From positions 76,939 through 140,938 of the forward strand of contig JAVCCW010000029.1 of the NCBI GenBank assembly GCA_030765235.1: DNA of 64,000 nt, written 5' to 3'. Source of the DNA: Candidatus Gorgyraea atricola (GTDB lineage: Bacteria > Omnitrophota > Gorgyraeia > Gorgyraeales > Gorgyraeaceae). Made by a program: the position numbers and the translations under genes. Shown piece by piece: positions 5,054 through 42,173 of the stretch; position 1 is the stretch's first letter, and each line of letters opens with the position of its first letter. A model generated the notes under the pieces. It ran no database searches. It was not told the origin of the DNA and saw only the letters and a list, made by a program, of their open reading frames with translations.

Positions 5054-6610
5054 GTGAATAAGCGTCCGCTTGCTGTAATTGCGATTTTCTTTGCATTAGG
5101 TATTGTCATTGCTAAGTTTTTGCCTGATTCTGTTCTATTTCCGCATGTATTCGTAGTTAGTTTAATCTTCATTTTATCGTCTTTACTTCTCACTCTACGT
5201 AGGCCAGGTTTAAACCTGGCCTACGGTGTAGATGGGGCGAGAAGAAAAGCCTCAAATATCCTTTTACTTTTATCAATAGCTTCATTCGCGATGCTTCTGT
5301 ATATCAATTCAAATATCTTTCCGAATAATCACATCAGCAATTTCTTAGGAGAGGAAAAACTCAAAACAGAGATAGTCGGCACTATCAAAAGCCCTGCATT
5401 GACGCGGAAGCCGTATTATGGGAAAATTAACTCGACGTATATATTCGACTTAGAAGCCATGCTGGTGAACGGTGAACGGTTTACGGTTAACGGATTAAGT
5501 CAGATAAGGATACAGACGGAAAAAGACTATCAATATGGCGATAGATTGCTTGTTAGAGGGACGATAAAAAGACCGTTCAATAGTGTCATTGCGAGCGAAG
5601 CGAAGCAATCTCAAGAAAAAGAGATTGCTTCGGCTGCTTCGCCCCGTTCCAAATCAGAGATTTGGAACGGGGCTTCGCAGCCTCGCAATGACAAGAGGAG
5701 TTTTGATTACCGAGGATTTCTCGAACGACAAAACATCTTTGCCCTTATAAACACAAGAGAGAATAATATTACTGTCCTATCTCACGATTACAAATCAAAT
5801 CCTATCCTGAGATATGCGTATTTACTCCGCGACAAACTGAAAAATCAAATCATTGATAAGATGCCTTTGGATAGCGGCGCTTTTTTAAGGGCGATTCTTC
5901 TGGGAGATCGCTCAGAATTGCCAAAACATGTTCGGGATTCATTTAAAAACTCAGGTACTATACATGTCCTGGCAATAAGCGGTCTGCATATTGGGATTAT
6001 TGCGCTTATGATCCTTTATCTTTTTAGGCTCTTGAGGGTCAGGAGGGAATTTTCTTACGGATTAACAATAATATTTTTGATATTTTTTGCGCTTCTTACG
6101 CTTTCAAGGCCATCAGTAGTAAGGGCAGTGGTTATGGCATCTATATTTCTTATAGGTATGCTTTTGGGGAAAAAGGTGGATGTGTATAATTCTTTGGGCG
6201 CAGCAGCGCTTTTTATATTGGTCAGGAATCCTAAGGATATTTCCAATATCGGGTTCCAGCTTTCTTTTGCGGCCGTTCTTTCTATATTGTTCTTTACGCC
6301 CAAATTCATGAGGCTTGTGAAGGAGGGGACGAATTTCTATATAAAGAGATTCTTGTATACACCTCTGGCAGTCTCAATATCAGCGTGGGCTGCAACAGCT
6401 CCTTTAATATGGTATTACTTCAAGATCACGACACCCATTGCCATTATCGCTAATCTCTTTATAATACCTGGCCTTTTTGCATTATTGATAGGCGGTCTGA
6501 GTTTTCTATTGCTGGGCTGGGTACCATTTATAGGAGATCTTCTGGCAGGCCTTAATGATTTTCTGTGTCAGGTGATCTTTTTTCTCACAACCTTCTTTGC
6601 ATCCTTTTAA
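5054..6610 (+). CDS. comEC: DNA internalization competence protein ComEC/Rec2 (core channel domain only, no C-terminal metallo-beta-lactamase domain). Contains two in-frame repeat-element insertions.
   Basis: HVLAISGLHIGIIALMILY and a multi-TM ComEC core. It follows comEA. The 26-bp palindrome at 5199..5224 and the 108-bp hairpin element at 5585..5692 are both read through in frame. Confidence 0.8.
   Translation: MNKRPLAVIAIFFALGIVIAKFLPDSVLFPHVFVVSLIFILSSLLLTLRRPGLNLAYGVDGARRKASNILLLLSIASFAMLLYINSNIFPNNHISNFLGEEKLKTEIVGTIKSPALTRKPYYGKINSTYIFDLEAMLVNGERFTVNGLSQIRIQTEKDYQYGDRLLVRGTIKRPFNSVIASEAKQSQEKEIASAASPRSKSEIWNGASQPRNDKRSFDYRGFLERQNIFALINTRENNITVLSHDYKSNPILRYAYLLRDKLKNQIIDKMPLDSGAFLRAILLGDRSELPKHVRDSFKNSGTIHVLAISGLHIGIIALMILYLFRLLRVRREFSYGLTIIFLIFFALLTLSRPSVVRAVVMASIFLIGMLLGKKVDVYNSLGAAALFILVRNPKDISNIGFQLSFAAVLSILFFTPKFMRLVKEGTNFYIKRFLYTPLAVSISAWAATAPLIWYYFKITTPIAIIANLFIIPGLFALLIGGLSFLLLGWVPFIGDLLAGLNDFLCQVIFFLTTFFASF
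5199..5224. repeat. 26-bp palindromic repeat GTAGGCCAGGTTTAAACCTGGCCTAC, copy 1 (in-frame inside comEC)
   Basis: Perfect palindrome containing GTTTAAAC. Seven copies in the window. Confidence 0.9.
5585..5692. repeat. 108-bp MITE-like double-hairpin element with GTCATTGCGAGCGAAGC terminal inverted repeats, inserted in-frame (36 codons) in comEC
   Basis: Termini GTCATTGCGAGCGAAGC...GCTTCGCAGCCTCGCAATGAC. Internal hairpins GAGATTGCTTCG and CCCCGTTCCAAATC/GATTTGGAACGGGG. Confidence 0.7.
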
Positions 6611-6613
6611 ACA

Positions 6614-6639
6614 GTAGGCCAGGTTTAAACCTGGCCTAC
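6614..6639. repeat. 26-bp palindromic repeat, copy 2 (intergenic, 4 nt after the comEC stop), followed by ACTACACTAC tandem
   Basis: Identical 26-mer. Confidence 0.9.
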
Positions 6640-6663
6640 ACTACACTACTGAACAGGTCTAAG

Positions 6664-6692
6664 TTGACATTGATATTGAGGTGTGGTAAGAT
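6664..6692 (+). promoter_or_regulatory. Candidate sigma70 promoter upstream of the bamD-like gene (the ATG is 7 nt after the -10, so possibly leaderless)
   Basis: TTGACA, 17 nt, TAAGAT. Confidence 0.4.
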
Positions 6693-6699
6693 TTAACAC

Positions 6700-7644
6700 A
6701 TGAAGAGACTAAGTATTATAGCTTTAATATTGCTTATATATCATATATTAGTGGCGCCGGCGTTTGCCTTCTGGGTGTGGACGCCTGAGAGCGGCAAGTG
6801 GGAGAACCCTAAGTACGCGGCCAAGGATACGCCTGAGGAGCAGCTGCAGCATGCCATAGGTTTCTACGAGGTCAAGAATTACAAGCTAGCCCTAAAGGAG
6901 TTCAAGAAGTTAATAAAGTATTACTCTCTTGCTAAAGAGGCACCCTCTGCGCAGTATTATGTAGGCCGCATCATGGAAGACCTGGATAAGCCATACGATG
7001 CATTTAAGGCATATCAAAAGGTAATAGACCTTTACCCTTATACAGATTTTGTGGATGAAGTTATCGAGAGACAATTTAAGATAGGTAATATGTTTTTGGC
7101 TGGCAAAAAAGTACAGATCCTGGGACCTCTAAAGATGCCGGCCAAGGATAAGGCAATAGAGATATTCAAGGCAGTGGCTGATACTTCTCCATATGGAAAG
7201 TACGCGGACCAGGCAGTGTTTAAGACGGGGCAGGCATATAAAGACATAGCTGATTATGACAGCGCTATAATGAGCTTCAAAGAGGTCATAGATAAATATC
7301 CTAATTCTGAACTTGTTGATACAGCGAGATATCAGCTGGCAGAGTGCTCAAAGTTATTGTCGTTAAGGCCTGAATATGATCAAACGCCTACAATAGCTGC
7401 CAGGGAGGAGTTCGAAGAGTTCATAGAGAAATATCCTGAAAGTGAGATGTCAGAGGATGCCAGGGAGATAGTTGATAAACTTAGAAATAGAGAGGCAGAG
7501 AACGGGTATAAGGTAGCGCAATTTTATGAATCAAGGCGCATGAATGAGAGCGCGGTTATATATTATGAGGATATAATTAGAAGTTATCCTGATACGCAGT
7601 GGGCCAAAAAAGCCCAGGAGAGATTAAATGAGATTAAGAAGTAG
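6700..7644 (+). CDS. BamD/YfiO-like TPR-repeat outer-membrane assembly protein (signal peptide, no lipobox Cys)
   Basis: Signal peptide ending APAFA. TPR-like repeats (YYVGRIMEDL..., FKTGQAYKDIADYDSA..., DTARYQLAECS...) resembling the BamD family. Candidate promoter at 6664..6692. Confidence 0.5.
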   Translation: MKRLSIIALILLIYHILVAPAFAFWVWTPESGKWENPKYAAKDTPEEQLQHAIGFYEVKNYKLALKEFKKLIKYYSLAKEAPSAQYYVGRIMEDLDKPYDAFKAYQKVIDLYPYTDFVDEVIERQFKIGNMFLAGKKVQILGPLKMPAKDKAIEIFKAVADTSPYGKYADQAVFKTGQAYKDIADYDSAIMSFKEVIDKYPNSELVDTARYQLAECSKLLSLRPEYDQTPTIAAREEFEEFIEKYPESEMSEDAREIVDKLRNREAENGYKVAQFYESRRMNESAVIYYEDIIRSYPDTQWAKKAQERLNEIKK

Positions 7645-8173
7645 TTTTTATCTCTTGTCCCTTGTCCCATGTCTCTTGTCCCTAACAAGCTGTGGCTACA
7701 CCACGAAAACCACCCTTCCGAACGATATAAAAACAATTCAGGTCGCTATATTCAAAAACAAGATCGATATAACAAAAGAGGTAAGCGCAAAGGATAAGTA
7801 TGAGGTCTACAGGCCAAATCTCGAAGTGGATCTCAGGGACGAGATCGTAAATAGAGTGTTTCTGGATGGACATTTAAAGGTGGCCTCAGGGAATGTCGCA
7901 AATGCTATTCTCTCAGGCGAGATCACGCAATACAGAAAAGACCCATTGAGATATCAAAATGAAGAAGTGCGTGAATACAGGATAAGCCTGGTATGTGATT
8001 TTAAATTAATAGATTCCAGGAATGGAGAAGTGTTGATAGAGGAAGATAGTATTACAGGAGATACGACTTATTTTACCACTGGCACGCTTCAGAAGAGCGA
8101 GACAGCTGCCTTAACCGATGCAATGCAGGATCTCGCTAGAAGAGTAGTTAATAGAGTAGTTGAGAACTGGTAA
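7628..8173 (+). CDS. lptE: LptE-like LPS-assembly lipoprotein
   Basis: Signal peptide plus the lipobox LTSCGY. Sits immediately upstream of holA, the conserved lptE-holA arrangement. The 5' end overlaps the bamD-like stop and is built from a CTTGTCCC tandem array. Confidence 0.5.
   Translation: MRLRSSFYLLSLVPCLLSLTSCGYTTKTTLPNDIKTIQVAIFKNKIDITKEVSAKDKYEVYRPNLEVDLRDEIVNRVFLDGHLKVASGNVANAILSGEITQYRKDPLRYQNEEVREYRISLVCDFKLIDSRNGEVLIEEDSITGDTTYFTTGTLQKSETAALTDAMQDLARRVVNRVVENW
7651..7683. repeat. Tandem 8-mer array (CTTGTCCC-like, x4, reverse complement of GGGACAAG). Encodes the hydrophobic core of the LptE-like signal peptide.
   Basis: TCTCTTGTCCCTTGTCCCATGTCTCTTGTCCC. Confidence 0.8.
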
Positions 8174-8179
8174 TAAAAA

Positions 8180-9139
8180 ATGCCCACCAAAATATTCCCC
8201 GCGTATCTTTTTCTTGGCGAAGAGGGTTTTTTAAAGCAAGAGGCGATCGAGAAACTGAAGTCGACTCTTTTGGATAAAAACACCCAGGATCTTAACTACA
8301 ATACATTTTACGCTAAGGACAAGAATTTTAACGTCAGTCAGATGCTTGACGATCTTGATACCATGCCGTTTTTATCAAAGAGGAGGCTGGTGATATTAAA
8401 GGAGGCTGATTCTGTAACCGTATCCGCAAAGACATCGATCCTTTCTTATCTGGAGAGTCCGAGGGAAAGCTCTGTTTTTGTTATTGAAAGCGATCTGCCT
8501 GCAATAAAGGGTGATTTTCTTTTAAAGGCCTCAAAGGCCGCGCACCTGATCTATCACAGGAAGCTGACAGACTCTAGCATCAATACATGGCTTGTTAAAA
8601 GAGCAGGCCTTGCCGGCAAAAAGATCTCCACAGAGGCCATTGACGCAATAAAAGAAAACCTGCCGAATGATCTCAGGGTGATCTCTTCCAATATGGATAA
8701 CATAATCCTCTATGTTGGCAAGAGGCCATTGATAAAAAAGCAGGATATTGAGAATATTGTAGGAGTGAGCCCTTCGCATACTGCCTTTGATCTTATAGAT
8801 GCTATAGGAGAGAAGGATGCTAAAAGAGCGCTGCGTATATTTTCTACTCTTAAGAGAGACAAGAAAAGGGAAACAGAGCTTTTAGGGCTTTTGGCATGGA
8901 ATGCGAGGATGCTTTTAAGGATAAAGGAGCTTTTCAGGATCAAGAATAATATGGAGATGCGTCAGGATCTTGACCTGAGCCCAAGGGTATTTGAGAGGAT
9001 CCTGCGTCACGCGTCTATGCTGAAGAAAAAAGAGATCCTCGCGCTGCTGGACGAGATACTCCGCTCAGACCTTGCTATAAAAACAGGCACTTCTCCTGGC
9101 GCTGTGATAGAGAGATTAATCGTAAGGATGTGTATCTAA
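8180..9139 (+). CDS. holA: DNA polymerase III delta subunit
   Basis: N-terminal ...PAYLFLGEEGFLKQEAIEKLK... is a typical HolA start. About 320 aa. Synteny with lptE. Confidence 0.75.
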   Translation: MPTKIFPAYLFLGEEGFLKQEAIEKLKSTLLDKNTQDLNYNTFYAKDKNFNVSQMLDDLDTMPFLSKRRLVILKEADSVTVSAKTSILSYLESPRESSVFVIESDLPAIKGDFLLKASKAAHLIYHRKLTDSSINTWLVKRAGLAGKKISTEAIDAIKENLPNDLRVISSNMDNIILYVGKRPLIKKQDIENIVGVSPSHTAFDLIDAIGEKDAKRALRIFSTLKRDKKRETELLGLLAWNARMLLRIKELFRIKNNMEMRQDLDLSPRVFERILRHASMLKKKEILALLDEILRSDLAIKTGTSPGAVIERLIVRMCI

Positions 9140-9209
9140 CTTTACTTGGCAAGGCTGGACCTCGGCTTTTTTTAAAAAAAGCCGAGGTCCAGCCTTGCCA
9201 AGTAAAGTT
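9139..9209. terminator. Long perfect hairpin (29-bp stem, A/T-tract loop) between convergent holA and rpsT. Bidirectional intrinsic terminator and member of a repeat family.
   Basis: AACTTTACTTGGCAAGGCTGGACCTCGGC-TTTTTTTTAAAAAAA-GCCGAGGTCCAGCCTTGCCAAGTAAAGTT. Confidence 0.75.
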
Positions 9210-9471
9210 AAGCGGTTTTTAGCTTTTTTGAGAGACGGGCAATTTTGCGCGAGGCAGTGTTCTTGTGGATAATGCCTTTTGAACTTGCCCTGTCGAGCGT
9301 TGAGATGAGGACATTGAGCTGTTTCTTTGCCTCATCCAGTTTTTTTGCAGACACAAGATCTATAAATTTCTTTGTCTCAGTCTTTAAAAGAGACTTTATA
9401 GACAGATTCCGCGCGGTCCTTCTTTTGGTTACCTTGATACTCTTGTAAGCAGCATGTAGTATTGGCATCAT
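9208..9471 (-). CDS. rpsT: 30S ribosomal protein S20
   Basis: An 87-aa basic protein reading MPILHAAYKSIKVTKRRTARNLSIKS... matches the S20 family. Convergent with holA and shares the bidirectional hairpin terminator. Confidence 0.85.
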   Translation of the reverse strand: MMPILHAAYKSIKVTKRRTARNLSIKSLLKTETKKFIDLVSAKKLDEAKKQLNVLISTLDRASSKGIIHKNTASRKIARLSKKLKTA

Positions 9472-9514
9472 TTCTCCTTTTTAGTGTAAGATAAGATAAC
9501 ATAATAGGACGCAT

Positions 9515-11038: not shown

Positions 11039-12261
11039 AAAAGATACCGCGCTCGCCTGGTATTTACATGATGAAGGATGCCGGGGGTGAGGTGCTCTAT
11101 ATAGGTAAGGCAAAGGATCTTTCGAAAAGGGTCGCAAGTTATTTTCAGAAGAATCGGCCTGTGACTGCGAGGCGGATGCATTTATTGGAACGCGTGAAGG
11201 ACCTGGATTATATAACTACGACTTCTGAAGAAGAGGCGCTTATCTATGAGTCGAATCTCATAAAGGAGAAAAAGCCGAAGTATAATGTGGACCTCAAGGA
11301 CGACAAGAGTTTTCCTTTTTTGAAATTGACATCGGGTGAGCGGTTTCCGCGACTTGTTATTACGCGGAAAAAGAGTGACGATGGCTCGAGATATTTTGGG
11401 CCGTACACGCGCGTGAAGCTTTTGCGCAAGGCGATTGCGGTAATGAAGGCCATCTTCCCTCTACGCACGTGCAAGAAGATGCCGGATCACGTGTGCCTGT
11501 CATATCATATTGGCCAGTGCGCAGGACCGTGCGTTAAAAAAGTCAGCGAAAAGGAGTATGGCGAGATCGTGAGGCAGCTTGTATTGTTTCTAGAAGGAAA
11601 AAAGGCGACACTTTTAAGAGAATTGGAGCAAAGAATGGGGGACGCAGCAAAGAATGAGAGATTCGAGGATGCGTGCATGATCCGCGACAGGATCGCAGCG
11701 CTTTCAGAGGTGCCTGGAAAAAAGTTCAGGGAATATAGCGGGTATGGCGATGTCGCGGTAAAGCTAAAAAGGCTTTTGCGGCTGCCGAGACTGCCTTTAA
11801 AGGTCGAGGCGTTTGACGTGTCAAATATATCAGGCCAGGAGGCCACAGGGTCGATGGTATATTTCAAGAATGGCAAGCCTGATAAATCAAATTACAGGAA
11901 ATTCAAGATAAAAAGCGTAAAGGACATAGACGACTATGCAATGATCCAGGAAATCGTGAGACGCAGGTACAAGCGGCTCAAGGAGGAAGACAAGGAGTTT
12001 CCCGATCTTATCATAATAGACGGGGGCAAGGGTCATTTACAGGCGGCATACAGGGAGCTCATGAAGCTGAATCTCAGGTATGTACCTATAATATCCATTG
12101 CAAAGAAACAGGAAAAGATATACACGCTTGGCGCTAAAAGCCCGTTGGATGTGAACAGGGACTCGCAGATCGTGCACTTTATCCAGCAGATCCGTGACGA
12201 AGCCCACCGCTTCGCGCTCAAGTATCACCACAAGCTGCGGGATAGGAAAGCAAGCCTCTAA
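11017..12261 (+). CDS. uvrC: UvrC-like excinuclease (short form, 414 aa). Has GIY-YIG, UVR and a RDEAHRFA-containing segment but lacks the C-terminal (HhH)2 domain.
   Basis: GIYMMKDAGGEVLYIGKAKDLSKRVASYF (GIY-YIG). UVR-like segment LRELEQRMGDAAKNERFEDACMIRDRIAAL. IRDEAHRFALKYHH near the C-terminus. The first 22 nt overlap the end of murJ. Confidence 0.65.
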   Translation: MGLKEKLKKIPRSPGIYMMKDAGGEVLYIGKAKDLSKRVASYFQKNRPVTARRMHLLERVKDLDYITTTSEEEALIYESNLIKEKKPKYNVDLKDDKSFPFLKLTSGERFPRLVITRKKSDDGSRYFGPYTRVKLLRKAIAVMKAIFPLRTCKKMPDHVCLSYHIGQCAGPCVKKVSEKEYGEIVRQLVLFLEGKKATLLRELEQRMGDAAKNERFEDACMIRDRIAALSEVPGKKFREYSGYGDVAVKLKRLLRLPRLPLKVEAFDVSNISGQEATGSMVYFKNGKPDKSNYRKFKIKSVKDIDDYAMIQEIVRRRYKRLKEEDKEFPDLIIIDGGKGHLQAAYRELMKLNLRYVPIISIAKKQEKIYTLGAKSPLDVNRDSQIVHFIQQIRDEAHRFALKYHHKLRDRKASL

Positions 12262-12297
12262 CTTTACACTTTTGTGATACACAGAAAAGTGTAAAGT
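12261..12297. terminator. Hairpin ACTTTACACTTTTGTG...CACAGAAAAGTGTAAAGT after uvrC
   Basis: About 16-bp imperfect stem immediately after the stop codon. Confidence 0.55.
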
Positions 12298-12302
12298 AGT
12301 AA

Positions 12303-12328
12303 AGTAGGCCAGGTTTAAACCTGGCCTA
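12303..12328. repeat. 26-bp palindromic repeat, copy 3 (uvrC-prfB spacer), followed by CTACTGCTACTGCT
   Basis: Identical 26-mer. Preceded by the AACTTTACACTTTTGTG hairpin. Confidence 0.9.
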
Positions 12329-12365
12329 CTGCTACTGCTCGGGGTGGTTAGGTGATATGAAAGCG

Positions 12366-16277: not shown

Positions 16278-16412
16278 AGTTGTGAGTTATGGGGGTGTGT
16301 TGTGAGTTATGTGTCGAGTTATGAGTTGTGGGTTGTGAGTAAAAAAACACACAACTCATCCCCACAACCCGACCCACAACCCATAACCCATCCTCACTCT
16401 CACAACAACTAG
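16278..16412. repeat. About 130-bp imperfect palindrome (TGTGAGTTATG... / ...CATAACCCATCCTCAC, centre GAGTAAAAAAACACACAACTC) immediately after secA
   Basis: The left arm is GT-rich and the right arm is its AC-rich complement. Confidence 0.8.
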
Positions 16413-16416: not shown

Positions 16417-17811
16417 ATGCTACTCACCATCATCTCTGCCATACTACTAATACTCGCCTTCCCAAACTTTAATCAGAGTTATTTTGTTTTTATAGGTTTT
16501 GTCCCGCTCCTTTTTGCAATACAGAAAAAGTCGGCAAAAAAGGCATTTTGGAATTCGTACCTGTGCGGGTTTTTATTTTACCTCGGTGTCTTATACTGGC
16601 TTTACCATGTGACAGGTGTTGGACTTATTATTCTTTGTCTCTATCTTGCGCTGTATTTCGGGATCTTTGGATTTTTATTCAATCGCGCCACCTATTATAC
16701 TTCAGGTTTCAGCCTTTTATTTATACCGCTAATATGGATTTTTCTTGAATATGTACAGTCTCATCTTTTTTCAGGTTTTGGCTGGGCCTTGCTGGGCTAT
16801 TCGCAATACAAGAAGCTGCATCTAATCCAGATCGCGGATTTTGCAGGAGTCTATGGTGTTTCATTTCTTGTGATGATGGTGAATGTCGCAGTCTATAAGT
16901 TTTTCAAGAGATCAGCAAAACATCTTGTGATATCTGCTTTGGTTCTGGCAATGGTATTTTGGTATGGGAAAATGAGGGAGAATGAGGGGGAATGGGGGGA
17001 TGGTCTTAAAGTATCAGTTATACAGGGAAACATTCCGCAGGAGATTAAATGGGATCCTTTTGCGAGTGACGAGATAATGAAGTCATATTTTAATCTAACC
17101 AGGCTCGCAGCATTTGACGAACCTGATTTAATAATCTGGCCTGAGACGTCTTTCCCTGGATTTTTTATAAGCGATGAGGAAAAAACCAAACAGGTCCTTG
17201 ATCTGGCAAGAAAGATACAGATCCCGCTTTTAATAGGAGCAAATACTGTAGATGGTTTGGATATTTTAAATAGCGCAGTGCTTATCTCAAAAAAAGGCGA
17301 AGTGATAGACAAATACGATAAGCTCCACCTTGTGCCTTTTGGCGAATTCGTGCCATTTGGAGACAAAATCCCTTTTTTGCATAGACTGGTGCTCGGCGAA
17401 CTGGGTCATTTTACAGCAGGAGAAGAGTACAGGATATTTAAGATCGAATACCCTTCTCCGCAGAAAATCTTTGATTTTAGTACAGGCGAACAGCAAGCCG
17501 CAAACATCGAGCATAGATTTGCTACGCTGATCTGCTTCGAGGACATCTTTCCTGGCATTGCCAAGCGGTTTGTCCAGAAAGGCGCGCAGTTTCTAGTGGT
17601 AATCACGAACGATGCCTGGTATGGCAAAAGCGGCGCACCTTATCAACACACAGCCTGCTCAGTCTTCCGCGCAATCGAGAACCGCGTCCCAATCGTACGC
17701 TGCGCCAACACAGGCTTTTCCTGCTTCATAGACCCCTACGGCCGCATCCACGACCCCATAGAAGATATATTTACCTCTAAACACAAAACCTCCACTGTTA
17801 AACTGAGATAA
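16417..17811 (+). CDS. lnt: Apolipoprotein N-acyltransferase
   Basis: N-terminal multi-TM region plus a CN-hydrolase domain (LICFEDIFP, WPETSFPG). Confidence 0.8.
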   Translation: MLLTIISAILLILAFPNFNQSYFVFIGFVPLLFAIQKKSAKKAFWNSYLCGFLFYLGVLYWLYHVTGVGLIILCLYLALYFGIFGFLFNRATYYTSGFSLLFIPLIWIFLEYVQSHLFSGFGWALLGYSQYKKLHLIQIADFAGVYGVSFLVMMVNVAVYKFFKRSAKHLVISALVLAMVFWYGKMRENEGEWGDGLKVSVIQGNIPQEIKWDPFASDEIMKSYFNLTRLAAFDEPDLIIWPETSFPGFFISDEEKTKQVLDLARKIQIPLLIGANTVDGLDILNSAVLISKKGEVIDKYDKLHLVPFGEFVPFGDKIPFLHRLVLGELGHFTAGEEYRIFKIEYPSPQKIFDFSTGEQQAANIEHRFATLICFEDIFPGIAKRFVQKGAQFLVVITNDAWYGKSGAPYQHTACSVFRAIENRVPIVRCANTGFSCFIDPYGRIHDPIEDIFTSKHKTSTVKLR

Positions 17812-17845
17812 CTTGACACTTTTCTATGTGTCACAAAAGTGTAAA

Positions 17846-17871
17846 GTAGGCCAGGTTTAAACCTGGCCTAC
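17846..17871. repeat. 26-bp palindromic repeat, copy 4 (after lnt), flanked by two CACAAAAGTGTAAAGT motifs
   Basis: Identical 26-mer. Confidence 0.9.
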
Positions 17872-22333: not shown

Positions 22334-22365
22334 AAAAAAAGCCGAGGCTGGACCTCGGCTTTTTC
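22334..22365. terminator. Short hairpin GCCGAGG-CTGGA-CCTCGGC flanked by A- and T-tracts after lolE. Related to the core of the 29-bp-stem family.
   Basis: AAAAAAAGCCGAGGCTGGACCTCGGCTTTTTCTG. Confidence 0.6.
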
Positions 22366-32458: not shown

Positions 32459-33127
32459 ATGAATGTCGCAGCCATAGTTCCCGCCGCAGGTAAAGGTAGG
32501 CGCATAAAATCAAAGATAGCCAAGCCACATATAAAGCTTTGCGGCAAACCAATACTTGCGCATACGCTAGTCAGGCTTTCAAAGAATAAACACATAAAAG
32601 AGATCATTGTCAGCGTCGATAAAAAACATATAGCAAGGGTCAAGAGATTCAAGATCAAGAATGTAAAGGTAGTAGCTGGAGGAAGGGAAAGAAAGCACTC
32701 CGTGCTTAATGCATTGAAAAAGGTGTCTAGCAACATAGATTATGTATTGATCCACGATGGCGTGAGACCCTTTCTTACTGATAAATTAATAAACGCCTCT
32801 TTAAAGGCAGCTCGCTCTTTTGGCGCAAGTGTTGTCGCGGTACCTGTAAAACCTACCTTGAAATGCGCTGGGAGGAGAGGCTGTGTAGCATACACGCCTG
32901 ATAGGACAAAGTTTTGGGAGGCGCAGACACCTCAGGTATTCAAAAGAGATTTAATAGAGAAGGCATACAGGGCCATTGGCAAGAAAAACATAACAGATGA
33001 TTCCATGCTGGTCGAGCTCCTGGGCATAAAACCAAAACTAGTCATGGGCTCGTACAGAAATATAAAGATCACGACAGAAGAAGATTTGAAACTGGCAAAG
33101 ATGTTGTGTAGTTTACCTCCTCTGTAG
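32459..33127 (+). CDS. ispD: 2-C-methyl-D-erythritol 4-phosphate cytidylyltransferase
   Basis: MNVAAIVPAAGKGRR is a typical IspD start. The stop codon TAG lies inside the 26-bp palindrome at 33124..33149. Confidence 0.85.
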   Translation: MNVAAIVPAAGKGRRIKSKIAKPHIKLCGKPILAHTLVRLSKNKHIKEIIVSVDKKHIARVKRFKIKNVKVVAGGRERKHSVLNALKKVSSNIDYVLIHDGVRPFLTDKLINASLKAARSFGASVVAVPVKPTLKCAGRRGCVAYTPDRTKFWEAQTPQVFKRDLIEKAYRAIGKKNITDDSMLVELLGIKPKLVMGSYRNIKITTEEDLKLAKMLCSLPPL

Positions 33128-33157
33128 GCCAGGTTTAAACCTGGCCTACAGAGGAGG
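33116..33157. repeat. 26-bp palindromic repeat, copy 5, with an extended 42-bp palindrome CCTCCTCTG...CAGAGGAGG. Carries the ispD stop codon and the ispF RBS.
   Basis: Core at 33124..33149. The arms extend the palindrome to 42 bp. Confidence 0.9.
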
Positions 33158-33176
33158 AGGGAAATAGGAGGCACAT

Positions 33177-33647
33177 ATGCGTGTAGGAATAGGTTATGAC
33201 ATACATAGATTTGTTGATGATAAGCCTCTTATGTTGGGTGGGATCGAGATCCCGCATATCAAAGGGCTTTCCGGGCATTCAGATGGAGATTCACTCCTGC
33301 ATGCAATATGCGATGCAATACTTGGGGCCGCGGGCATGGACGATATAGGCCATCAGTTCCCTAACAATGATGATAGATACGCTGGTATAGCGAGTAGTGA
33401 ACTCTTAAAAATGGTTGCGGATAAGATAAATAAAAAAGGCTTTAAAGTCGACTATGTGGATTCTGTGATCATATTGGAGGAACCCAAGATAGCGCCTTTT
33501 AAAGATGCCATGAGGCAAGAGATAGCAAAGACACTAGGGATAGCTAAGGAGAGCGTCAATGTCAAGGCAACGACACAAGAGGGTATTGGCGCGCTTGGCA
33601 GAGGCGAGGCCATAGCGGCGTATGCCGTAGCTTCTTTAGTGAAATAA
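33177..33647 (+). CDS. ispF: 2-C-methyl-D-erythritol 2,4-cyclodiphosphate synthase
   Basis: MRVGIGYDIHRF..., HSDGD...HA..DA, 156 aa. The RBS GGAGG is supplied by the palindrome arm. Confidence 0.9.
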   Translation: MRVGIGYDIHRFVDDKPLMLGGIEIPHIKGLSGHSDGDSLLHAICDAILGAAGMDDIGHQFPNNDDRYAGIASSELLKMVADKINKKGFKVDYVDSVIILEEPKIAPFKDAMRQEIAKTLGIAKESVNVKATTQEGIGALGRGEAIAAYAVASLVK

Positions 33648-33649: not shown

Positions 33650-35011
33650 ATGAAGATATATAATACGCTTAAGAGAAAAAAGGAAAGTTTCGAGCCCAAG
33701 AGAAAAATCGGTATGTACGTATGCGGCCCAACGGTTTACGACGCGCCTCATATCGGTCACGCGAGAAGCGCTTATGCATTTGATGTGATACGCCGGTATT
33801 TTGAATATAAAAAACACAAGGTTACTTTTGTAAGAAATGTCACTGATGTCGACGATAAGATAATCAATAAAGCGAGAGATGAATTTAAGAAAGAGGATTT
33901 AAATAGCGCGGTAAAAAAGGTCTCAGATAAATACCTCAAGGTCTATCATAAATACATGGATGATCTGGGTATCAAGCGGCCTGATAAAGAGCCAAAGGCC
34001 ACAGAGTATATAGGTAAGATGAAGGATTTTATCGCTATATTGATAAAAAAAGGCGTAGCTTATGAATCAGATGGCGATGTGTATTTTAATATTAAAAAGG
34101 CAAAGAAATATGGCAAATTGTCAAATCAGAGCATTGAGAACCTGGAGGTTGGGGCGCGAGTTTCTCCAAAAGAACACAAAAAGGACCCACTTGATTTTGC
34201 TCTTTGGAAAAAGGCCAAGGATGGTGAGCCTTATTGGGAGAGTCCATGGGGAAAAGGCAGACCTGGCTGGCATATAGAATGCTCGGTGATGAGCTCGGAT
34301 ATTTTAGGAGACGAGTTTGACATACACGGCGGAGGCATAGATCTTATCTTTCCGCACCACGAGAACGAGATTGCGCAATCAGAGGGCGCAGGAAAAAAAT
34401 TCGCGCGTTTTTGGATACACAACGGACTTTTGACTATCAATAAAGAAAAGATGGCCAAGTCCCTGGGAAATTTTATTACAATAGAAGAGATCCTGAGTAA
34501 ATATTCAGCAGACGTACTTAAGATATTATTCTTACAGACGCATTATTCTCATCCAGTGGATTTTTCCTGGGAGAGGATGGAAGAGGCGAAGAGGGCGATG
34601 GAGAGGTTCAGTATCGTGTTGGGCAGCTCCGATAGCAACAAGCGACAAGCAACAAGGGACAAGGGGGTTGAAGAATTTCGCAAGAGGTTTGAGGAGGCTA
34701 TGGATGATGATTTTAATACTCCAAGTGCACTTGCGGCGCTGTTCGATTTAGTTACGTATGTTAATAAATTAGGGACAAGGGACAAGGGACAAGGGACAAG
34801 GGAGTTGTTGGATTTGGGTAGGGTGTTCGGGTTGTTTGAGAAAAGAAAAGTCCAGAAACTTAAGGTAGAGGTAAAAAAACTCATAGAGGAAAGAAATAAA
34901 GCCAGGAAGGAAAAGGATTTCAAGGCAGCGGATAAAATAAGAGAAAAATTAGATAAAATGGGCATTATACTCGAGGATCAAAAAGACGGCACCACCTGGC
35001 GAACGACCTAA
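33650..35011 (+). CDS. cysS: Cysteinyl-tRNA synthetase. An in-frame (GGGACAAG)x4 array lies in the linker region.
   Basis: HIGH (PHIGHARS) and KMSKS (KMAKSLGN) motifs. Zinc-binding Cys residues. Array at 34772..34803, with a degenerate copy at 34624..34656. Confidence 0.9.
   Translation: MKIYNTLKRKKESFEPKRKIGMYVCGPTVYDAPHIGHARSAYAFDVIRRYFEYKKHKVTFVRNVTDVDDKIINKARDEFKKEDLNSAVKKVSDKYLKVYHKYMDDLGIKRPDKEPKATEYIGKMKDFIAILIKKGVAYESDGDVYFNIKKAKKYGKLSNQSIENLEVGARVSPKEHKKDPLDFALWKKAKDGEPYWESPWGKGRPGWHIECSVMSSDILGDEFDIHGGGIDLIFPHHENEIAQSEGAGKKFARFWIHNGLLTINKEKMAKSLGNFITIEEILSKYSADVLKILFLQTHYSHPVDFSWERMEEAKRAMERFSIVLGSSDSNKRQATRDKGVEEFRKRFEEAMDDDFNTPSALAALFDLVTYVNKLGTRDKGQGTRELLDLGRVFGLFEKRKVQKLKVEVKKLIEERNKARKEKDFKAADKIREKLDKMGIILEDQKDGTTWRTT
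34772..34803. repeat. Tandem 8-mer array (GGGACAAG)x4 in-frame in cysS. A degenerate array lies upstream at 34624..34656.
   Basis: GGGACAAGGGACAAGGGACAAGGGACAAGGGA. Confidence 0.85.
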
Positions 35012-35077
35012 CTTTACTTGGCAAGGCTGGACCTCGGCTTTTTTAAAAAAGCCGAGGTCCAGCCTTGCCAAGTAAAG
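35009..35077. terminator. Second copy of the identical 29-bp-stem hairpin, between cysS and tmk (same strand)
   Basis: Same stem sequence as 9139..9209. The loop is TTTTTTAAAAAA. Confidence 0.7.
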
Positions 35078-35093
35078 TTAGGTTAAGGGGATC

Positions 35094-35714: not shown

Positions 35715-35842
35715 TTGTGAGGGTGAGGATGAGTTATGGGTTGTGGGTCGAGTTGTGAGGTGTAGGTAGTGAGTAAAAACACACAACCCATCCTCACAAC
35801 CCGACACATAACTCACAACACACCCACACAACACACAACAAA
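35715..35842. repeat. Second copy of the TGTGAGT-type 130-bp imperfect palindrome, immediately after tmk
   Basis: Shares the GAGTAAAAACACACAAC centre and the CCCATCCTCACAACCCGAC motif with the 16278 copy. Confidence 0.8.
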
Positions 35843-37580: not shown

Positions 37581-37702
37581 AATCCCAAATCCAAATACTA
37601 CCAAATCCCAAATAAATCCCAATTTCAAAATCCCAAAATTGGGATTTGGGATTTTGGATTTATTTGGTAGTATTGGTATTATTGGTAGTATTGGGATTTA
37701 TT
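37581..37702. repeat. About 120-bp imperfect palindrome of CCCAAAT/ATTTGGG units (centre CCCAAAATTGGG) between ricT and metG. Shares an identical 29-mer with the greA-upstream element.
   Basis: GATTTATTTGGTAGTATTGGTATTATTGG occurs at 37657..37685 and again at 47326..47354. Confidence 0.8.
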
Positions 37703-37708
37703 AAAATT

Positions 37709-39193
37709 ATGAGAAAATTTTATATCACCACCCCCCTATATTACGTAAACGGTAATCCGCACATCGGGCATTCCTATACTAACATTGCCTGTGATGTGCT
37801 TGCCAGGTTCAGACGACTGCAAGGCGACGAAGTATTATTTGCCACAGGTACTGATGAGCATGGTCAGAAGATACAGGACTCAGCCAGTGAAAAAGGCATG
37901 GAGCCGAGGGCGTTTGTGGATAGCGTGGTGCCAAGGTTCAAGGATCTGTGGAAGCAGCTTAATATCTCATACGATGATTTTATCCGGACTACAGAGCCCA
38001 GACACGAAGAGGTGGTCAAAAAGATACTCGAGATGTTGCATAAGAATGGGGATCTCTATGAAGGCGAGTACAGCGGGTGGTATTGCACCCCGTGCGAAAG
38101 TTTTTGGACAGGGGCGCAGCTCATAGAGGAGAAGTGCCCTGACTGCAAGCGTCAGGTAGAACACATAAAAGAGAAGAATTTCTTTTTCAAGCTCTCCAAG
38201 TATCAGGGTTGGCTCGTAGATTACATTAATTCGCACGAAGATTTTATATTACCTGTTATAAGACGCAATGAGGTCTTAAGTTTTTTAAAAAACCCTTTGA
38301 ATGACCTGTGTGTCTCAAGGCCAAAATCAAGGCTTTCATGGGGAGTGGCAATGCCTTTTAGCGAAGACCATGTCACATATGTGTGGTTTGACGCGCTCAT
38401 AAATTATATAAGCGTATGTGGCTATGGCGATGATCCAAAGAAATTTAAAAAATTCTGGCCGGCAGACATACACATGATAGGTAAGGATATTTTAAGGATG
38501 CATGCGGTTAACTGGCCCATAATGCTTCATGCTGCAGGCATAGAGATGCCAAAGACAGTGTTCGCGCACGGCTGGTGGAAGATAAACGAGGACAAGATGT
38601 CTAAGTCCAAGGGCAATATAATAGATCCAAAGGAAATGGTAGATAGATTTGGCATTGACGCATATAGATATTTTCTTTTAAGAGAAGTGCCGTTTGGCAT
38701 GGATGGCTCGTTTTCGGAAAAGGCCTTGATATCAAGGATCAACAGCGACCTTGCTAATGATCTTGGTAATCTCCTGCACAGGACGCTTTCAATGATAGAG
38801 AAATATTTTGAAGGAGCTGTGCCTAAAAGGACGCGGAATGTTGATGAGCTTAGTAAATCTCTTATTGATAAGGCAAAGGGTTTGGAATCCGAGATCAAAG
38901 TAGCCCTGGATACTATAAATTTCAGCAAGGCGCTTACAGCCATATGGGAATTGATAAACATGGCGAATAAATTCATAGAACAGAAGGCGCCATGGAAGCT
39001 TTCTAAGGAAAAAAAGACTGACCAGTTAAAAGATATGATGCGTGATCTCTATGATGTCTTGAGCATAGTTTGCAGCGCACTATACCCGTTTATGCCGACT
39101 ACATCAGAGAATATGGCGATTCAACTCGGCCTTGCAAAGCCAGGTACCAAGATCAATAAAGGTAAACCACTTTTTCCCAGAATAGAGAAGTAA
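37709..39193 (+). CDS. metG: Methionyl-tRNA synthetase (short form, no C-terminal tRNA-binding domain)
   Basis: MRKFYITTPLYYVNGNPHIGH (HIGH motif), KMSKS. Zinc knuckle CTPCESF...CPDC. The track ORF start at 37646 lies inside the upstream palindrome. Confidence 0.9.
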   Translation: MRKFYITTPLYYVNGNPHIGHSYTNIACDVLARFRRLQGDEVLFATGTDEHGQKIQDSASEKGMEPRAFVDSVVPRFKDLWKQLNISYDDFIRTTEPRHEEVVKKILEMLHKNGDLYEGEYSGWYCTPCESFWTGAQLIEEKCPDCKRQVEHIKEKNFFFKLSKYQGWLVDYINSHEDFILPVIRRNEVLSFLKNPLNDLCVSRPKSRLSWGVAMPFSEDHVTYVWFDALINYISVCGYGDDPKKFKKFWPADIHMIGKDILRMHAVNWPIMLHAAGIEMPKTVFAHGWWKINEDKMSKSKGNIIDPKEMVDRFGIDAYRYFLLREVPFGMDGSFSEKALISRINSDLANDLGNLLHRTLSMIEKYFEGAVPKRTRNVDELSKSLIDKAKGLESEIKVALDTINFSKALTAIWELINMANKFIEQKAPWKLSKEKKTDQLKDMMRDLYDVLSIVCSALYPFMPTTSENMAIQLGLAKPGTKINKGKPLFPRIEK

Positions 39194-39202
39194 GGAGTCA
39201 AC

Positions 39203-40360
39203 ATGCGACAAATTTATTTAGATCATAACGCCACTACACCGCTTCGCAAGGAAGTTTTAGATGCCATGATGCCGTATCTTACTAGCGATTATGGCAATGC
39301 CTCGAGCGTGCACTCTAAAGGTCAGTCTGCGCTTAAGGCAGTGGAATCCTCAAGAGAGATAATAGGTAATGCCATAGCTACAGAGCCAGTGGATATCGTC
39401 TTTACATCAGGCGGCACAGAATCTGATAATTTTGCGATAAAGGGCGTTGCGATCGCAAATCTTGATAAAGGCAGGCATCTCATAACTACACAGATAGAGC
39501 ATCACGCGGTCCTGGAGTCATGCAAATTTTTAGAAGAGCAGCTTGGGTTTGAAGTGACGTACCTGCCTGTTGACAAATATGGCGTGGTGGATTTAAACAG
39601 ATTAAAGGAAGCGATAAGAAAAGATACAGTTCTTGTTTCAGTTATGTTTGCCAATAACGAGATAGGTACTATCCAGCCAATAAAGGAGATCGCAAAGATC
39701 ACGAAAAAAAATGGCGTGTATTTTCACACAGACGCGGTTCAGGCCCTGGGCAAGGAATCTATAGATGTGGAAGATCTAGGCGTGGACCTCTGTTCATTTT
39801 CTGCCCATAAATTAAGTGGGCCAAAGGGTATAGGAGCGTCATACATCCGGAAGGGTGTTAAGATCGTACCTTTTCAGGCTGGCGGGTATCACGAGAGAAA
39901 GAGAAGGGCTGGGACATTGAATGTGCCTGGTATTGTTGGTTTCGCAAAGGCCATGGAGATAGCAAAGCGCGATATGAAGAAAAACAATAAACACATGAAA
40001 AGGTTGAATAAAAAATTACTGACTGGCCTCCAGAAAGAGCTCGATGAGATCTACCTGAATGGCCATCCGGATAACAGGCTCTCAAATACCCTTAATGTAA
40101 GTTTCAGGTATATTGAAGGAGAGTCATTGATATTGAATTTTGACATGAAGGGTATATTTGCCTCGACAGGTTCTGCCTGCACGTCTGGTTCGCTGGAAAC
40201 TTCTCATGTCCTTACCAGTATAGGAGTCCCGCCAGATCGCTCGCAAGGTTCTATAAGGTTCTCATTCGGTTACGAAAATAAAGACGAGGACGTAGATTAT
40301 TGCCTGATAGAGATCCCGCCTGTAGTAAAAAGACTCAGAGAAATGTCCCCTCTATGTTAA
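39203..40360 (+). CDS. iscS: Cysteine desulfurase (IscS/NifS family)
   Basis: PLP lysine motif FSAHKLSGPKGIG. Active-site Cys loop SACTSGS. Confidence 0.85.
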   Translation: MRQIYLDHNATTPLRKEVLDAMMPYLTSDYGNASSVHSKGQSALKAVESSREIIGNAIATEPVDIVFTSGGTESDNFAIKGVAIANLDKGRHLITTQIEHHAVLESCKFLEEQLGFEVTYLPVDKYGVVDLNRLKEAIRKDTVLVSVMFANNEIGTIQPIKEIAKITKKNGVYFHTDAVQALGKESIDVEDLGVDLCSFSAHKLSGPKGIGASYIRKGVKIVPFQAGGYHERKRRAGTLNVPGIVGFAKAMEIAKRDMKKNNKHMKRLNKKLLTGLQKELDEIYLNGHPDNRLSNTLNVSFRYIEGESLILNFDMKGIFASTGSACTSGSLETSHVLTSIGVPPDRSQGSIRFSFGYENKDEDVDYCLIEIPPVVKRLREMSPLC

Positions 40361-41121
40361 TAGACACACACTGCCATCTGGATTTTAAGAATTTTGACGA
40401 AGATAGGAGTGAAGTCATTGCTCGTTCAAAAGAACAGGGCATAGAATTTATCATCAATGTTGGTTCCAGTATGGAAGGTACTAAAAGGTCTCTGGAGCTC
40501 GCAGAGAAGCATGAATTTATATACGCCGCAGCAGGTATCCATCCGCACGACGCTGATCATGCAGGAGATGAGGATCTGGAATCATTCAGAAGATTTTTTG
40601 AGAGCAAAAAAGTCGTCGCGGTCGGGGAGATAGGCCTTGATTATTATAAAAATATCTCATCAAAAGAGAACCAGAAGAAATTATTTATAAAATTATTGCG
40701 CGAGGCAAAAGAAAGAGAATTACCTATTATTATCCATAATCGCGACGCCCATAAAGATACATTAGCTATTTTAAGAAAAGAGATAGGGAAGTCTATAAAG
40801 GGTGTTATGCATTGTTTTTCAGGAGACGAGGCCCTGCTTAGGGAGTGTCTGGACCTTGGCATGCATGTATCTTTTACCTGTAATCTTACATTTAAGAATG
40901 CTGGTAGGCTGCGCGATATAGCAAGGCTCGTGCCCATGGAGAGACTTCTGCTTGAGACAGACGCGCCTTTTTTAGCGCCGCAGGAGTTTAGGGGAAAGCG
41001 CAATGAACCCATGTATGTGAAGTATTTGGCTGAGGAGATCGCGAATATAAAAGGTCTAGACTTTAAAGAAGTCGCGAAGATTACAACGGAGAATGCAAAG
41101 AGGTTGTTTGGATTATGCTAG
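40354..41121 (+). CDS. tatD: TatD-family metal-dependent DNase
   Basis: MLIDTHCHLDF... with conserved His/Glu/Asp metal ligands. ATG at 40354 overlaps the iscS end by 7 nt. Confidence 0.85.
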   Translation: MLIDTHCHLDFKNFDEDRSEVIARSKEQGIEFIINVGSSMEGTKRSLELAEKHEFIYAAAGIHPHDADHAGDEDLESFRRFFESKKVVAVGEIGLDYYKNISSKENQKKLFIKLLREAKERELPIIIHNRDAHKDTLAILRKEIGKSIKGVMHCFSGDEALLRECLDLGMHVSFTCNLTFKNAGRLRDIARLVPMERLLLETDAPFLAPQEFRGKRNEPMYVKYLAEEIANIKGLDFKEVAKITTENAKRLFGLC

Positions 41122-42173
41122 AGTTCATCAGGCGTGAAAAGATATATTTCCTAATACTCTTTTTTATATTAGCTGTAAATTTGATGCAGGTAAAGACCGT
41201 AAAAAAAGAGACGCCTAGTGAAAAGTCTTTGTCTTCGATGAACTTTGAGGAACTGGGTGTTACAGAAGAAAAGGTTAAGGACTTTTTCGAGTCTGATAAG
41301 TTCAGCGCAAAATTCTTTAAGTATCTTGTATACTTTGGATTTTTTATATTTGCCCTGTCTTTGGTGCTGAATCTTGTTTTTATTTTTAGGGGAAAGCCCC
41401 GTCTCTGTAGGCCGGGTTTAAACCCGGCCTACAGAGACGGGGTGGAGATAGGGAGAAAGGGTGCGGGAGCACCATGGGAGATACTGGACATATTCAGGGC
41501 AGTCCTTATTATAATATTTGCAGGTTATGTGCTGGCGATCATCGAGGCGTATGTCGTGAAGTCCTTTCATCTTGAATTGACTATGAATCTACGCATGATA
41601 ATCAATACCTTTTTTATAGATATTGTTGCAGCGATGGTGATCTTGTATTTTGTCATGGTCAAATACAAAAAGAACATACAGGAGTTGGGACTAAAGACCT
41701 CTTCTTTTTTAAGAAATATTTTATCTGGCATAACTGCCTATATTTTTATGTTGCCGGTTTTGCTGGTAATATTGATCTTCTCTATATGGATCTTGAATGC
41801 GTTGGGATATACGCCGCCGCCTCAGCCTGTATTTGAGGTGTTCATGGAAGAGAAGAAGAGCCTGGTGCTTTTATTTCTGACAGTCTTTGTATCAGTGCTT
41901 GGGCCTATAGTAGAAGAGGTCTTTTTTAGAGGGTTTATGTACAGTGCTGTAAGAAAGCATACAGGTGTATTGGCCGCGGCATTTTTAAGTGGCGCTATTT
42001 TTAGTATGCTGCATACAAACATCGTTGGATTTTTACCCATAATGGCGCTGGGCGTGCTTTTGGCATATCTCTACGAGACTACAGGTTCGCTTGTGGCGTC
42101 GATAAGTGTTCATATATTGCATAATTCCATTATCGTGGCTTTTGTATTTTTTCTAAAAGAATTAATAGGTTAG
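41115..42173 (+). CDS. CPBP-family intramembrane metalloprotease (Abi/CAAX protease). Carries an in-frame 26-bp palindrome insertion.
   Basis: Conserved EE(V)xFRG (GPIVEEVFFRGFMY) and HxxxN/H motifs in TM helices. The palindrome at 41407..41432 encodes CRPGLNPAYRDG. Confidence 0.6.
   Translation: MLEFIRREKIYFLILFFILAVNLMQVKTVKKETPSEKSLSSMNFEELGVTEEKVKDFFESDKFSAKFFKYLVYFGFFIFALSLVLNLVFIFRGKPRLCRPGLNPAYRDGVEIGRKGAGAPWEILDIFRAVLIIIFAGYVLAIIEAYVVKSFHLELTMNLRMIINTFFIDIVAAMVILYFVMVKYKKNIQELGLKTSSFLRNILSGITAYIFMLPVLLVILIFSIWILNALGYTPPPQPVFEVFMEEKKSLVLLFLTVFVSVLGPIVEEVFFRGFMYSAVRKHTGVLAAAFLSGAIFSMLHTNIVGFLPIMALGVLLAYLYETTGSLVASISVHILHNSIIVAFVFFLKELIG
41397..41442. repeat. 26-bp palindromic repeat, variant copy 6 (GCCGGGTTTAAACCCGGC core), with extended CCCCGTCTCTG arms. 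In-frame inside the CPBP protease.
   Basis: Core at 41407..41432. The variant keeps the palindrome through a compensatory change. Confidence 0.85.

Follow-up and report, generated by a model that had tools for sequence, protein, structure and literature searches.

The systems closest to the repeat described here are the GTAG-tagged repetitive extragenic palindromic (REP) elements, a superfamily reported from eight phyla, including Planctomycetes and Verrucomicrobia, whose members comprise E. coli REP/BIME, Stenotrophomonas SMAG, and GTAG-17 to GTAG-20 of Opitutus terrae (Di Nocera et al. 2013, PMC3733652). GTAG REPs fall into subfamilies with complementary stem changes, lie just 3' of open reading frames (ORFs) between unidirectional or convergent genes, and can provide a TAG stop codon from their GTAG terminus (PMC3733652). 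Intragenic in-frame copies are also known, with the highest numbers in Opitutus terrae and Rickettsia conorii, and two Rickettsia palindromic elements (RPEs), RPE-4 and RPE-6, have been assigned to REPs of the CGTC type (PMC3733652). GTAG REPs are associated with REP-associated tyrosine transposases (RAYTs, also TnpA-REP), which are thought to mobilize them (PMC3733652); RAYTs cleave single-stranded REPs at a CT dinucleotide located 5' or 3' of the hairpin, with GTAG serving both for recognition and as a guide (Corneloup et al. 2021, PMC8266576). Here, we analyze a 26-nucleotide (nt) palindrome, GTAGGCCAGGTTTAAACCTGGCCTAC, in a 64-kb stretch of contig JAVCCW010000029.1 of Candidatus Gorgyraea atricola (referred to as the window). 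This 26-mer is probably a REP-type repeat that forms hairpins, is non-autonomous, and has expanded in a single lineage of Candidatus Omnitrophota.

The likeness to GTAG REPs is extensive. The 26-mer is a stem-loop of 20 to 40 nt with a terminal GTAG and complementary stem variants, it is dispersed near upstream stop codons, its TAG is used as a stop, copies occur in frame within genes, and CT is enriched beside the foot. The three behaviors flagged in an earlier note on this DNA are already known properties of GTAG REPs. These elements are known in the Planctomycetes-Verrucomicrobia-Chlamydiae group, to which Omnitrophota are related, and Omnitrophota are not among the phyla described. Unlike GTAG REPs, the 26-mer is a perfect palindrome without a loop, and its outer flanks are locus-specific but complementary to each other. 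REPINs, which Bertels and Rainey reportedly described in 2011 as REP doublets that form hairpins, share with the 26-mer a symmetric hairpin with GTAG heads on the outside that behaves as a replicating unit. The 26-mer differs from them in having no spacer and in that its 13-nt halves do not form hairpins and are never found alone (none of 155 half-site matches was a lone half).

Two further systems invite comparison. Like RPEs, the 26-mer is a selfish palindrome that occupies intergenic sites and also lies in frame within conserved proteins, at surface or loop regions, but it is far shorter (26 nt compared with approximately 100–150 bp for RPE-1) and carries GTAG instead of CGTC. The RPE host is an obligate intracellular alphaproteobacterium, whereas the host of the 26-mer is a free-living or epibiotic member of the Omnitrophota. 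Members of the IS200/IS605 group such as IS608 and ISDra2 resemble the 26-mer in that a DNA hairpin and a guide tetranucleotide at its foot are the proposed recognition target, in producing no target duplication, and in keeping a tetranucleotide at the junction; unlike these, the 26-mer has no linked transposase gene, its left and right ends are indistinguishable, and its transposition is only proposed. The most fitting description of the 26-mer is a perfectly palindromic Omnitrophota family of REP type, with a GTAG foot at both ends, whose members insert in frame into protein loops.

A palindromic family shared by many Omnitrophota genomes

A search of the window allowing up to three mismatches returned seven matches, five exact and two with two mismatches, while 100 dinucleotide-preserving shuffles of the window gave none, which is also the number expected by chance. 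The core GGTTTAAACC occurs in the window only within these seven copies. Both variants, at 41407 (GGCCGG/CCGGCC) and at 56893 (GCCCAG/CTGGGC), carry changes that are complementary between the two arms, which bears out the seven copies and two compensatory variants first noticed; the copy at 56893 lies beyond the interval given at that time (5199–41442). The 26-mer is symmetric over its entire length, with GTAG as its first and CTAC as its last four bases, and is predicted to form a hairpin of -21.4 kcal/mol with 11 bp in the stem (13 bp if pairing is complete) and a UUAA loop, within the size range of REPs (20–40 bp, with a stem of 5–13 bp and a short loop). A non-redundant set of 75–78 copies was assembled from all fetched loci (given L numbers below). 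GTAG is invariant in this set (78 of 78 copies) and symmetry is perfect in 74 copies, spread over six variants, with four asymmetric.

The 26-mer belongs to a wider set of palindromes of the form GTAGG...CCTAC, often with a GGTTT..AAACC apex, in which the middle of the stem varies in a compensatory manner. Sister families with the same feet include GTAGGGGACGGTTTAAAACCGTCCCCTAC, GTAGGGAACGGTTTCAAACCGTTCCCTAC, GTAGGGGACCCTTAAGGGTCCCCTAC, and GTAGACAAAAC... Six symmetric variants together with sister families having other stems correspond to the subfamilies with complementary stem changes that are characteristic of REPs.

When one genome per species was scanned for GTAGNCCNGGTTTAAACCNGGNCTAC, the exact 26-mer was found on 67 stretches from 24 independent assemblies, nearly all of them labeled Candidatus Omnitrophota. 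This set excludes the genome of the window, as no stretch carries the flanks seen there. The carriers come from groundwater, lake sediment, marine samples, and the Black Sea, with single-cell genomes among them, and the highest count in one representative assembly is 20 copies. The 26-mer is thus a dispersed multi-copy family common to many Omnitrophota genomes. It had no copy in a viral contig collection, no Rfam family matched in the window, and the searched literature held nothing on the 26-mer sequence or on REPs in Omnitrophota.

A perfect palindrome of this kind could raise the suspicion of a sequencing adapter or an assembly artefact, which the earlier note had named as a possible refutation: GTTTAAAC is a PmeI site, and chimeric reads can yield perfect palindromes. 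We exclude this explanation with near certainty because the 26-mer is present in 24 independent assemblies, made in different projects with different assemblers and including single-cell genomes. Copies are, moreover, embedded in conserved synteny and in reading frames that are still open, and symmetric variants recur in several genomes.

In-frame copies in permissive protein loops

The first exact copy (5199–5224) lies inside a coding sequence on the + strand (5054–6610) for a ComEC-type protein with DUF4131 and Competence domains (Pfam). It is read as RPGLNLAY (R50–Y57), in a loop between predicted helices 2 and 3. The ORF could be aligned over its full length with 19 Omnitrophota ComEC homologs; its first 48 residues are conserved, and the loop holding RPGLNLAY varies among the homologs in length and sequence. 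None of the 19 has the motif at this loop (loop 1), and the ComEC of locus L068 lacks the repeat there. One homolog (P0016; loci L072/L073) has an identical 26-mer, again in frame, within a second loop that is hypervariable; judged from the alignment, this is an independent insertion into the same protein. That the copy at 6614 might have truncated ComEC was considered and rejected: all Omnitrophota homologs are 470–540 residues long and have no lactamase domain.

The GGCCGG variant (41407–41432) is found inside an Rce1-like/CPBP protease gene (41115–42173, + strand). With 10-bp complementary flanks it forms a 46-bp perfect palindrome (41397–41442) with a predicted RNA fold of -49.5 kcal/mol (z = -10.7), and all of it lies within coding sequence. 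The first approximately 97 residues of the protein are conserved, and residues 99–106 are encoded by the repeat as RPGLNPAY. A 94%-identical protein (P0121, L071) shares this segment, whereas those of L069, L070, and L074 (P0122–P0124, 81–89% identical) have an unrelated KKIDFKAPY segment instead. The change at this site is not a simple insertion, as approximately 41 nt are replaced by 50–71 nt. Relatives without the ComEC or CPBP copies have 75–89% identity. The alignments therefore confirm that both copies are translated in frame, as had been proposed from the ORFs, and the comparison with orthologs suggested in the earlier note came out as anticipated: the inserted residues are absent from the 81–89% identical CPBP proteins and, at loop 1, from all 19 ComEC homologs.

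Further 26-mers are in frame in Tgt (L013), in a GT2 glycosyltransferase (L020, L043), and in an LpxL-Elm1 fusion (L022), and in all three the Pfam match spans the insert. The two GT2 copies occupy an orthologous site in two species and represent different symmetric variants. The N-terminus of FtsQ (L007) probably also holds an in-frame copy. The 26-mer has a single open frame out of three, and because the sequence is palindromic, RPGLNLAY is read in either orientation. Copies survive in permissive protein loops, always in this single open frame. AlphaFold models of low overall confidence weakly suggest that both window inserts lie in coils between helices: residues 48–58 of ComEC are predicted as coil with a predicted local distance difference test score (pLDDT) below 50 (mean for the model, 59), and residues 92–122 of the CPBP protein are predicted as coil in a model with a mean pLDDT of 57.

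Other palindromes are found in such loops. In the Tgt ortholog of L058, the loop that holds the 26-mer in L013 contains an unrelated palindromic insert. An IF-2B/MtnA-like gene of L069 carries another GTAG palindrome in frame (GTAGGTGGAACAAAAGTTCCACCTAC, position 8755) with 12-bp mirrored flanks, and the same loop contains a GTCATTGCGAG... element in L071; neither element is present in the window or in L074. It appears that different elements have repeatedly entered the same permissive loops. In the window's own ComEC, the second variable loop is occupied by a 108-nt (36-codon) composite nested palindrome, GTCATTGCGAGCGAAGCGAAGCAATCTC...CGCAATGAC (5585–5692), with inner hairpins at 5601–5632 and 5641–5673. 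It is translated in frame as VIASEAKQSQEKEIASAASPRSKSEIWNGASQPRNDK and is more RPE-like than the 26-mer. In the 1.07 Mb of fetched loci, 39 occurrences of its end motif, GTCATTGCG/CGCAATGAC, were counted. The ComEC homologs have other translated repeats in the same loops (DSRFRGNDK, GFQTRPY, and SRLRPSLRSGLRSKN).

Gene context and occupancy of orthologous sites

Copies of the 26-mer come and go at orthologous sites among close relatives. In 27 relatives, the ispD-ispF junction, which carries an exact copy in the window, is either empty or holds other palindromes, with no element in eight of them. The GTAG palindromes found there include GTAGGGGACGGTTTAAAACCGTCCCCTAC (L088), GTAGGGAACGGTTTCAAACCGTTCCCTAC (L096), GTAGGGAACGGTTTTAAACCGTTCCCTAC (L101), and GTAGGGACAGGACAATGTCCTGTCCCTAC (L094), and even the closest relative (L075, with 95% IspF identity) has an unrelated palindrome. 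Similarly, the orthologous ComEC-BamD spacer lacks the repeat in L068 and contains a different palindrome, GTAGGGGACCCTTAAGGGTCCCCTAC, in L072. The same is seen for a 33-nt sister GTAG...CTAC element, GTAGACAAAACAGACAGTGTCTGTTTTGTCTAC, which begins 1 nt past the ilvD stop of the window (52075–52107; 52070–52112 with 5-bp complementary flanks): this family has no copy at the orthologous site of L069 and is present after ispF in L075, where the window has none.

The density of the 26-mer also differs widely between lineages, with 109 copies/Mb in the window compared with 5.5/Mb in an unselected 181 kb around ispF from relatives with at least 71% IspF identity, a difference of approximately 20-fold. 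Relatives more distant than these had zero copies. This difference, together with presence/absence differences at 87–95% flank identity, points to a lineage-specific and fairly recent expansion, in support of the initial suggestion that the element is active or was so recently.

The position of the copies relative to genes is that of a REP. Over all loci, 33 copies lie between unidirectional genes, 6 between convergent and 2 between divergent genes, and 12 inside ORFs; the distance from the upstream stop codon has a median of approximately 20 nt and is mostly 0–60 nt, and in four cases the TAG of GTAG is itself the upstream stop. In the copy at the ispD-ispF junction of the window (33124–33149), TAG at 33125–33127 terminates ispD; likewise, TAG within GTAGG is the ispD stop in L101. 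This copy had also been credited with the Shine-Dalgarno sequence of ispF, which does not hold. The AGGAGG adjoining it belongs to the variable flank rather than to the 26-mer and is approximately 20 nt from the ispF ATG, and the ribosome-binding site is likely a second AGGAGG (33166–33171), 5 nt before the ATG at 33177. Including 8-bp complementary flanks, the copy forms a 42-bp perfect palindrome (33116–33157) that folds at -40.8 kcal/mol.

The other four intergenic copies of the window follow their upstream genes at varying distances. An exact copy at 6614–6639 begins 3 nt past the ComEC stop; the sequence after it, ACTACACTACTG, contains the CTAC foot once more. A second (12304–12329) is 42 nt past a UvrC-like ORF, directly after a TAACTTTACA...TGTAAAG hairpin (12259–12299) with which it folds at a combined -45.3 kcal/mol (z = -7.6), and a third (17846–17871) is 34 nt past the Lnt ORF, nested between CACAAAAGTGTAAAG repeat arms. 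The GCCCAG variant (56893–56918) lies 53 nt past the LeuA ORF and forms a 36-bp perfect palindrome with 5-bp complementary flanks (56888–56923). The five copies are thus intergenic as originally described, but not always within a few nucleotides of a stop. Every long ORF of the window is on the + strand, and GC skew is positive throughout. Pfam identifies ComEC, BamD, LptE, UvrC, PrfB, Lnt, IspD, IspF, TatD, the CPBP/Rce1-like protease, LeuA, and AroE among the neighbors, and from this list we conclude that the host is a diderm bacterium. Integron attC sites were considered as an identity of the repeats and rejected; the neighboring genes are syntenic housekeeping genes.

The location of most copies between co-directional genes near the upstream stop would also be expected of a hairpin that serves the host and is kept by selection, be it as an mRNA 3' stabilizer, a processing site, a terminator, or the palindromic binding site of a conserved protein. 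Identity across 24 assemblies, compensatory variants, and very stable folds (-21 kcal/mol for the core and as low as -49.5 when flanks are included) fit such a function, as does the sense strand of the outer stem formed by the flanks, in which G-U pairs exceed A-C mismatches (64 vs 43 overall, and 31 vs 12 at positions 7–9). This slight G-U excess hints at some RNA-level selection. The variable occupancy of orthologous sites in close relatives, with unrelated palindromes in place of the 26-mer, argues against a host-serving hairpin, as do copies in the coding sequences of at least seven unrelated proteins, the approximately 20-fold density difference between lineages, and the lack of an Rfam match. 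Nor do the copies resemble intrinsic terminators: a T-run follows none of the five intergenic copies in the window, and only a few copies elsewhere lie between A and T runs (L004, L010, and L065). We therefore regard a primary host function as unlikely, while a secondary one, as is usual for REPs, may exist.

The densities also bear on the idea that the 26-mer is a DNA uptake signal for transformation, comparable to the DNA uptake sequences (DUS) of Neisseria or the uptake signal sequences of Haemophilus. Its sequence is identical across species, the genome encodes ComEC, and DUS often occur as inverted pairs after genes. Uptake signals, however, occur at approximately one copy per kb across the whole genome, within genes and spacers alike, whereas the 26-mer is far too sparse and uneven, at 5.5 copies/Mb in unselected relatives and at most 20 per representative assembly. 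Many unrelated palindrome families occupy the same sites, and the position in comEC is only one among many in-frame insertions. This explanation is hardly credible, and a mobile repeat of REP type accounts better for the pattern.

Mirrored flanks, probable mobility, and possible growth of palindromes

Usually, the 26-mer forms the tip of a longer palindrome with an outer part that is specific to the locus. Watson-Crick pairing between the flanks is seen for 77% of copies at position 1 and 68% at positions 2–4, falling to 26% at position 10, and perfect extensions reach up to 12 bp and differ between loci. In several cases, one flank is ancestral or under constraint and the opposite one reflects it. 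The right flank of the copy in L025 mirrors a left flank, GAGAATA..., that is common to the orthologous L094 and L098; in L075, TTTTC on the right mirrors GAAAA, which codes for the IspF C-terminus; and at window position 52075, TTTAG mirrors CTAAA, which contains the ilvD stop. For the CPBP copy, 7 of 10 flank positions are paired in L071, compared with 10 of 10 in the window. Hairpin arms are known to be lengthened and made perfect by single-step template switching during replication (PMC8794818, PMC3820800), which would account most economically for the mirrored flanks.

The same flanks distinguish the 26-mer from MITEs (miniature transposable elements with inverted repeats) of DDE type, with which it shares being short, palindromic, multi-copy, and polymorphic between relatives. 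Its flanks are mutual reverse complements and not direct target-site duplications, it is only 26 nt long with no internal sequence, its GTAG/CTAC feet are typical of REPs, and no related insertion sequence was noticed in the fetched loci. A MITE is accordingly very improbable. The earlier suggestion of a REP- or MITE-like selfish palindrome that tolerates in-frame insertion is supported by the orthologs without the insert, with GTAG REPs the closer match because there are no target-site duplications.

Several sequence features are those of RAYT substrates. Of 150 flank sides, 38 (25%) have CT directly 5' of GTAG compared with a background of 6%, an approximately fourfold enrichment, in agreement with the CT at which RAYTs cleave on either side of the hairpin. 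In 23 of 154 cases, compared with 3.5% of random positions, the flanks repeat the CTAC foot (as in CTACACTACACTAC, CTACTGCTACTGCT, and CTACAGCTACAGCT), and CTAC is kept at the junction in two element-free sites, ComEC loop 1 of L068 and ispD-ispF of L091. These observations are consistent with a pathway in which a single-stranded DNA hairpin would be recognized through its GTAG foot and apex, and a RAYT/IS200-type HUH Y1 transposase would then cut it at the CT beside the foot and paste it elsewhere. Preferred junctions would be GTAG or TAG-stop contexts, which would account for the frequent apparent supply of stop codons. After insertion, the perfect palindrome would provoke template switching, by which a short piece of one flank would be copied in mirror image to the opposite side, and so would give rise to extended palindromes that differ by locus. 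The outer stem may in addition be under weak selection at the RNA level, and a host role such as stabilization of mRNA 3' ends would be secondary, if there is one.

A number of observations weigh against this reading. In classical GTAG REPs, the tag is unpaired and confined to one end, whereas the 26-mer has GTAG at both 5' ends, paired with CTAC; because GTAG is on both strands and paired, the family falls outside the strict definition of a GTAG REP. No PF01797/RAYT/Y1 gene was found in the 1.07 Mb of window and fetched loci, which are fragments of approximately 100 genomes, by tblastn with three Y1/RAYT probes, an HUH-Y motif scan, and a hidden Markov model built from 120 genuine RAYTs (PF01797), with the probe validated; a search of protein databases for RAYTs gave proteobacterial ones only. 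Since the sample covers only fragments of these genomes, the missing RAYT is weak evidence, but RAYT is the partner that defines such REPs, expected in the same genome with cognate REPs on either side. At sites without the element, the CTAC may mark a past deletion and not a target. An automated comparison across 154 loci produced many pairs of filled and empty sites but no clean one, as the surrounding spacer or loop also differed in each pair, and for this reason target choice, the exact moving unit, and the origin of the mirrored flanks can only be inferred. Finally, other repeat families clearly hold copies of the 26-mer at their apex, namely GCAAAGGCC...GGCCTTTGC, TAACTTTACA...TGTAAAGTTA, and GTAGATGC...GCATCTAC, so that insertion into existing hairpin apices could account for part of the flank symmetry without template switching.

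A more radical possibility, to which we give a small but appreciable chance, is that the palindromes extend themselves. A seeded GTAG-footed palindrome would grow by template switching, mirroring adjacent sequence including coding sequence, and the spread in Omnitrophota might then need no dedicated RAYT. If this were true, the numerous perfect palindromes without a loop in this genome (as long as 78 nt) would be products of one mutational process, which would also be a routine source of new protein-loop sequence.

Long perfect palindromes are unusually common in the window, raising the question of how the host tolerates them. We counted 22 perfect hairpins with a stem of at least 10 bp and a loop of at most 8 nt, including those at 47870–47920 (51 nt), 57892–57936, 58805–58843, and 58944–58978. 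Two near-identical loopless perfect palindromes of 74 and 78 nt (TAACTTTACTTGGCAAGGCTGGACCTCGGCTTTTTTT|AAAAAAAGCCGAGG...) are located at 9137–9210 and 35006–35083, and a single-hairpin version, AAAAAGCCGAGGCTGGACCTCGGCTTTTT, at 22336–22364 resembles a bidirectional intrinsic terminator. A second hairpin family with TAACTTTACA...TGTAAAGTTA feet is often found beside or around the 26-mer (window 12259–12299, 17809–17849, and 56865–56885; L015, L021, L027, and L060); its candidate roles are a promoter-like element (TTTACA/TTGACA) or another mobile palindrome. Related intergenic hairpins of approximately 105 nt at 16290–16397 and 35724–35829 have a GT-rich arm (TGGGGGTGTGTTGTGAGTTATG...) and an AC-rich arm.

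Tandem repeats are present as well. Within a CysS-like ORF (33650–35011), 8-nt repeats of the GGGACAAG type (34633–34815) are translated in frame (SNKRQATRDKG, LGTRDKGQGTRE), and a similar run is located just upstream of leuA (55271–55316). Repeats of 9-nt periodicity, TTGGGATTT/GGTAGTATTGG, lie at or near the starts of ORFs 37646–39193 and 47237–47869 (37639–37703 and 47308–47379).

As a REP-type family, the 26-mer extends GTAG-type elements to the uncultured phylum Candidatus Omnitrophota, for which our literature search found no REP description. The practical consequences concern both assembly and annotation. Many copies lie at contig ends, so these repeats break assemblies; starts and stops can be misannotated on their account; and their translations enter databases as spurious peptides such as RPGLNLAY, VIASEAKQS, DSRFRGNDK, and GFQTRPY. 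The paired double GTAG foot and the mirrored flanks make the family a tractable case for studying how REPs are recognized and how perfect palindromes persist and grow. For the organisms themselves, the picture is one of compact genomes riddled with fast-turnover palindromes that rewrite gene ends, spacers, and the loops of essential membrane and tRNA-modification proteins.

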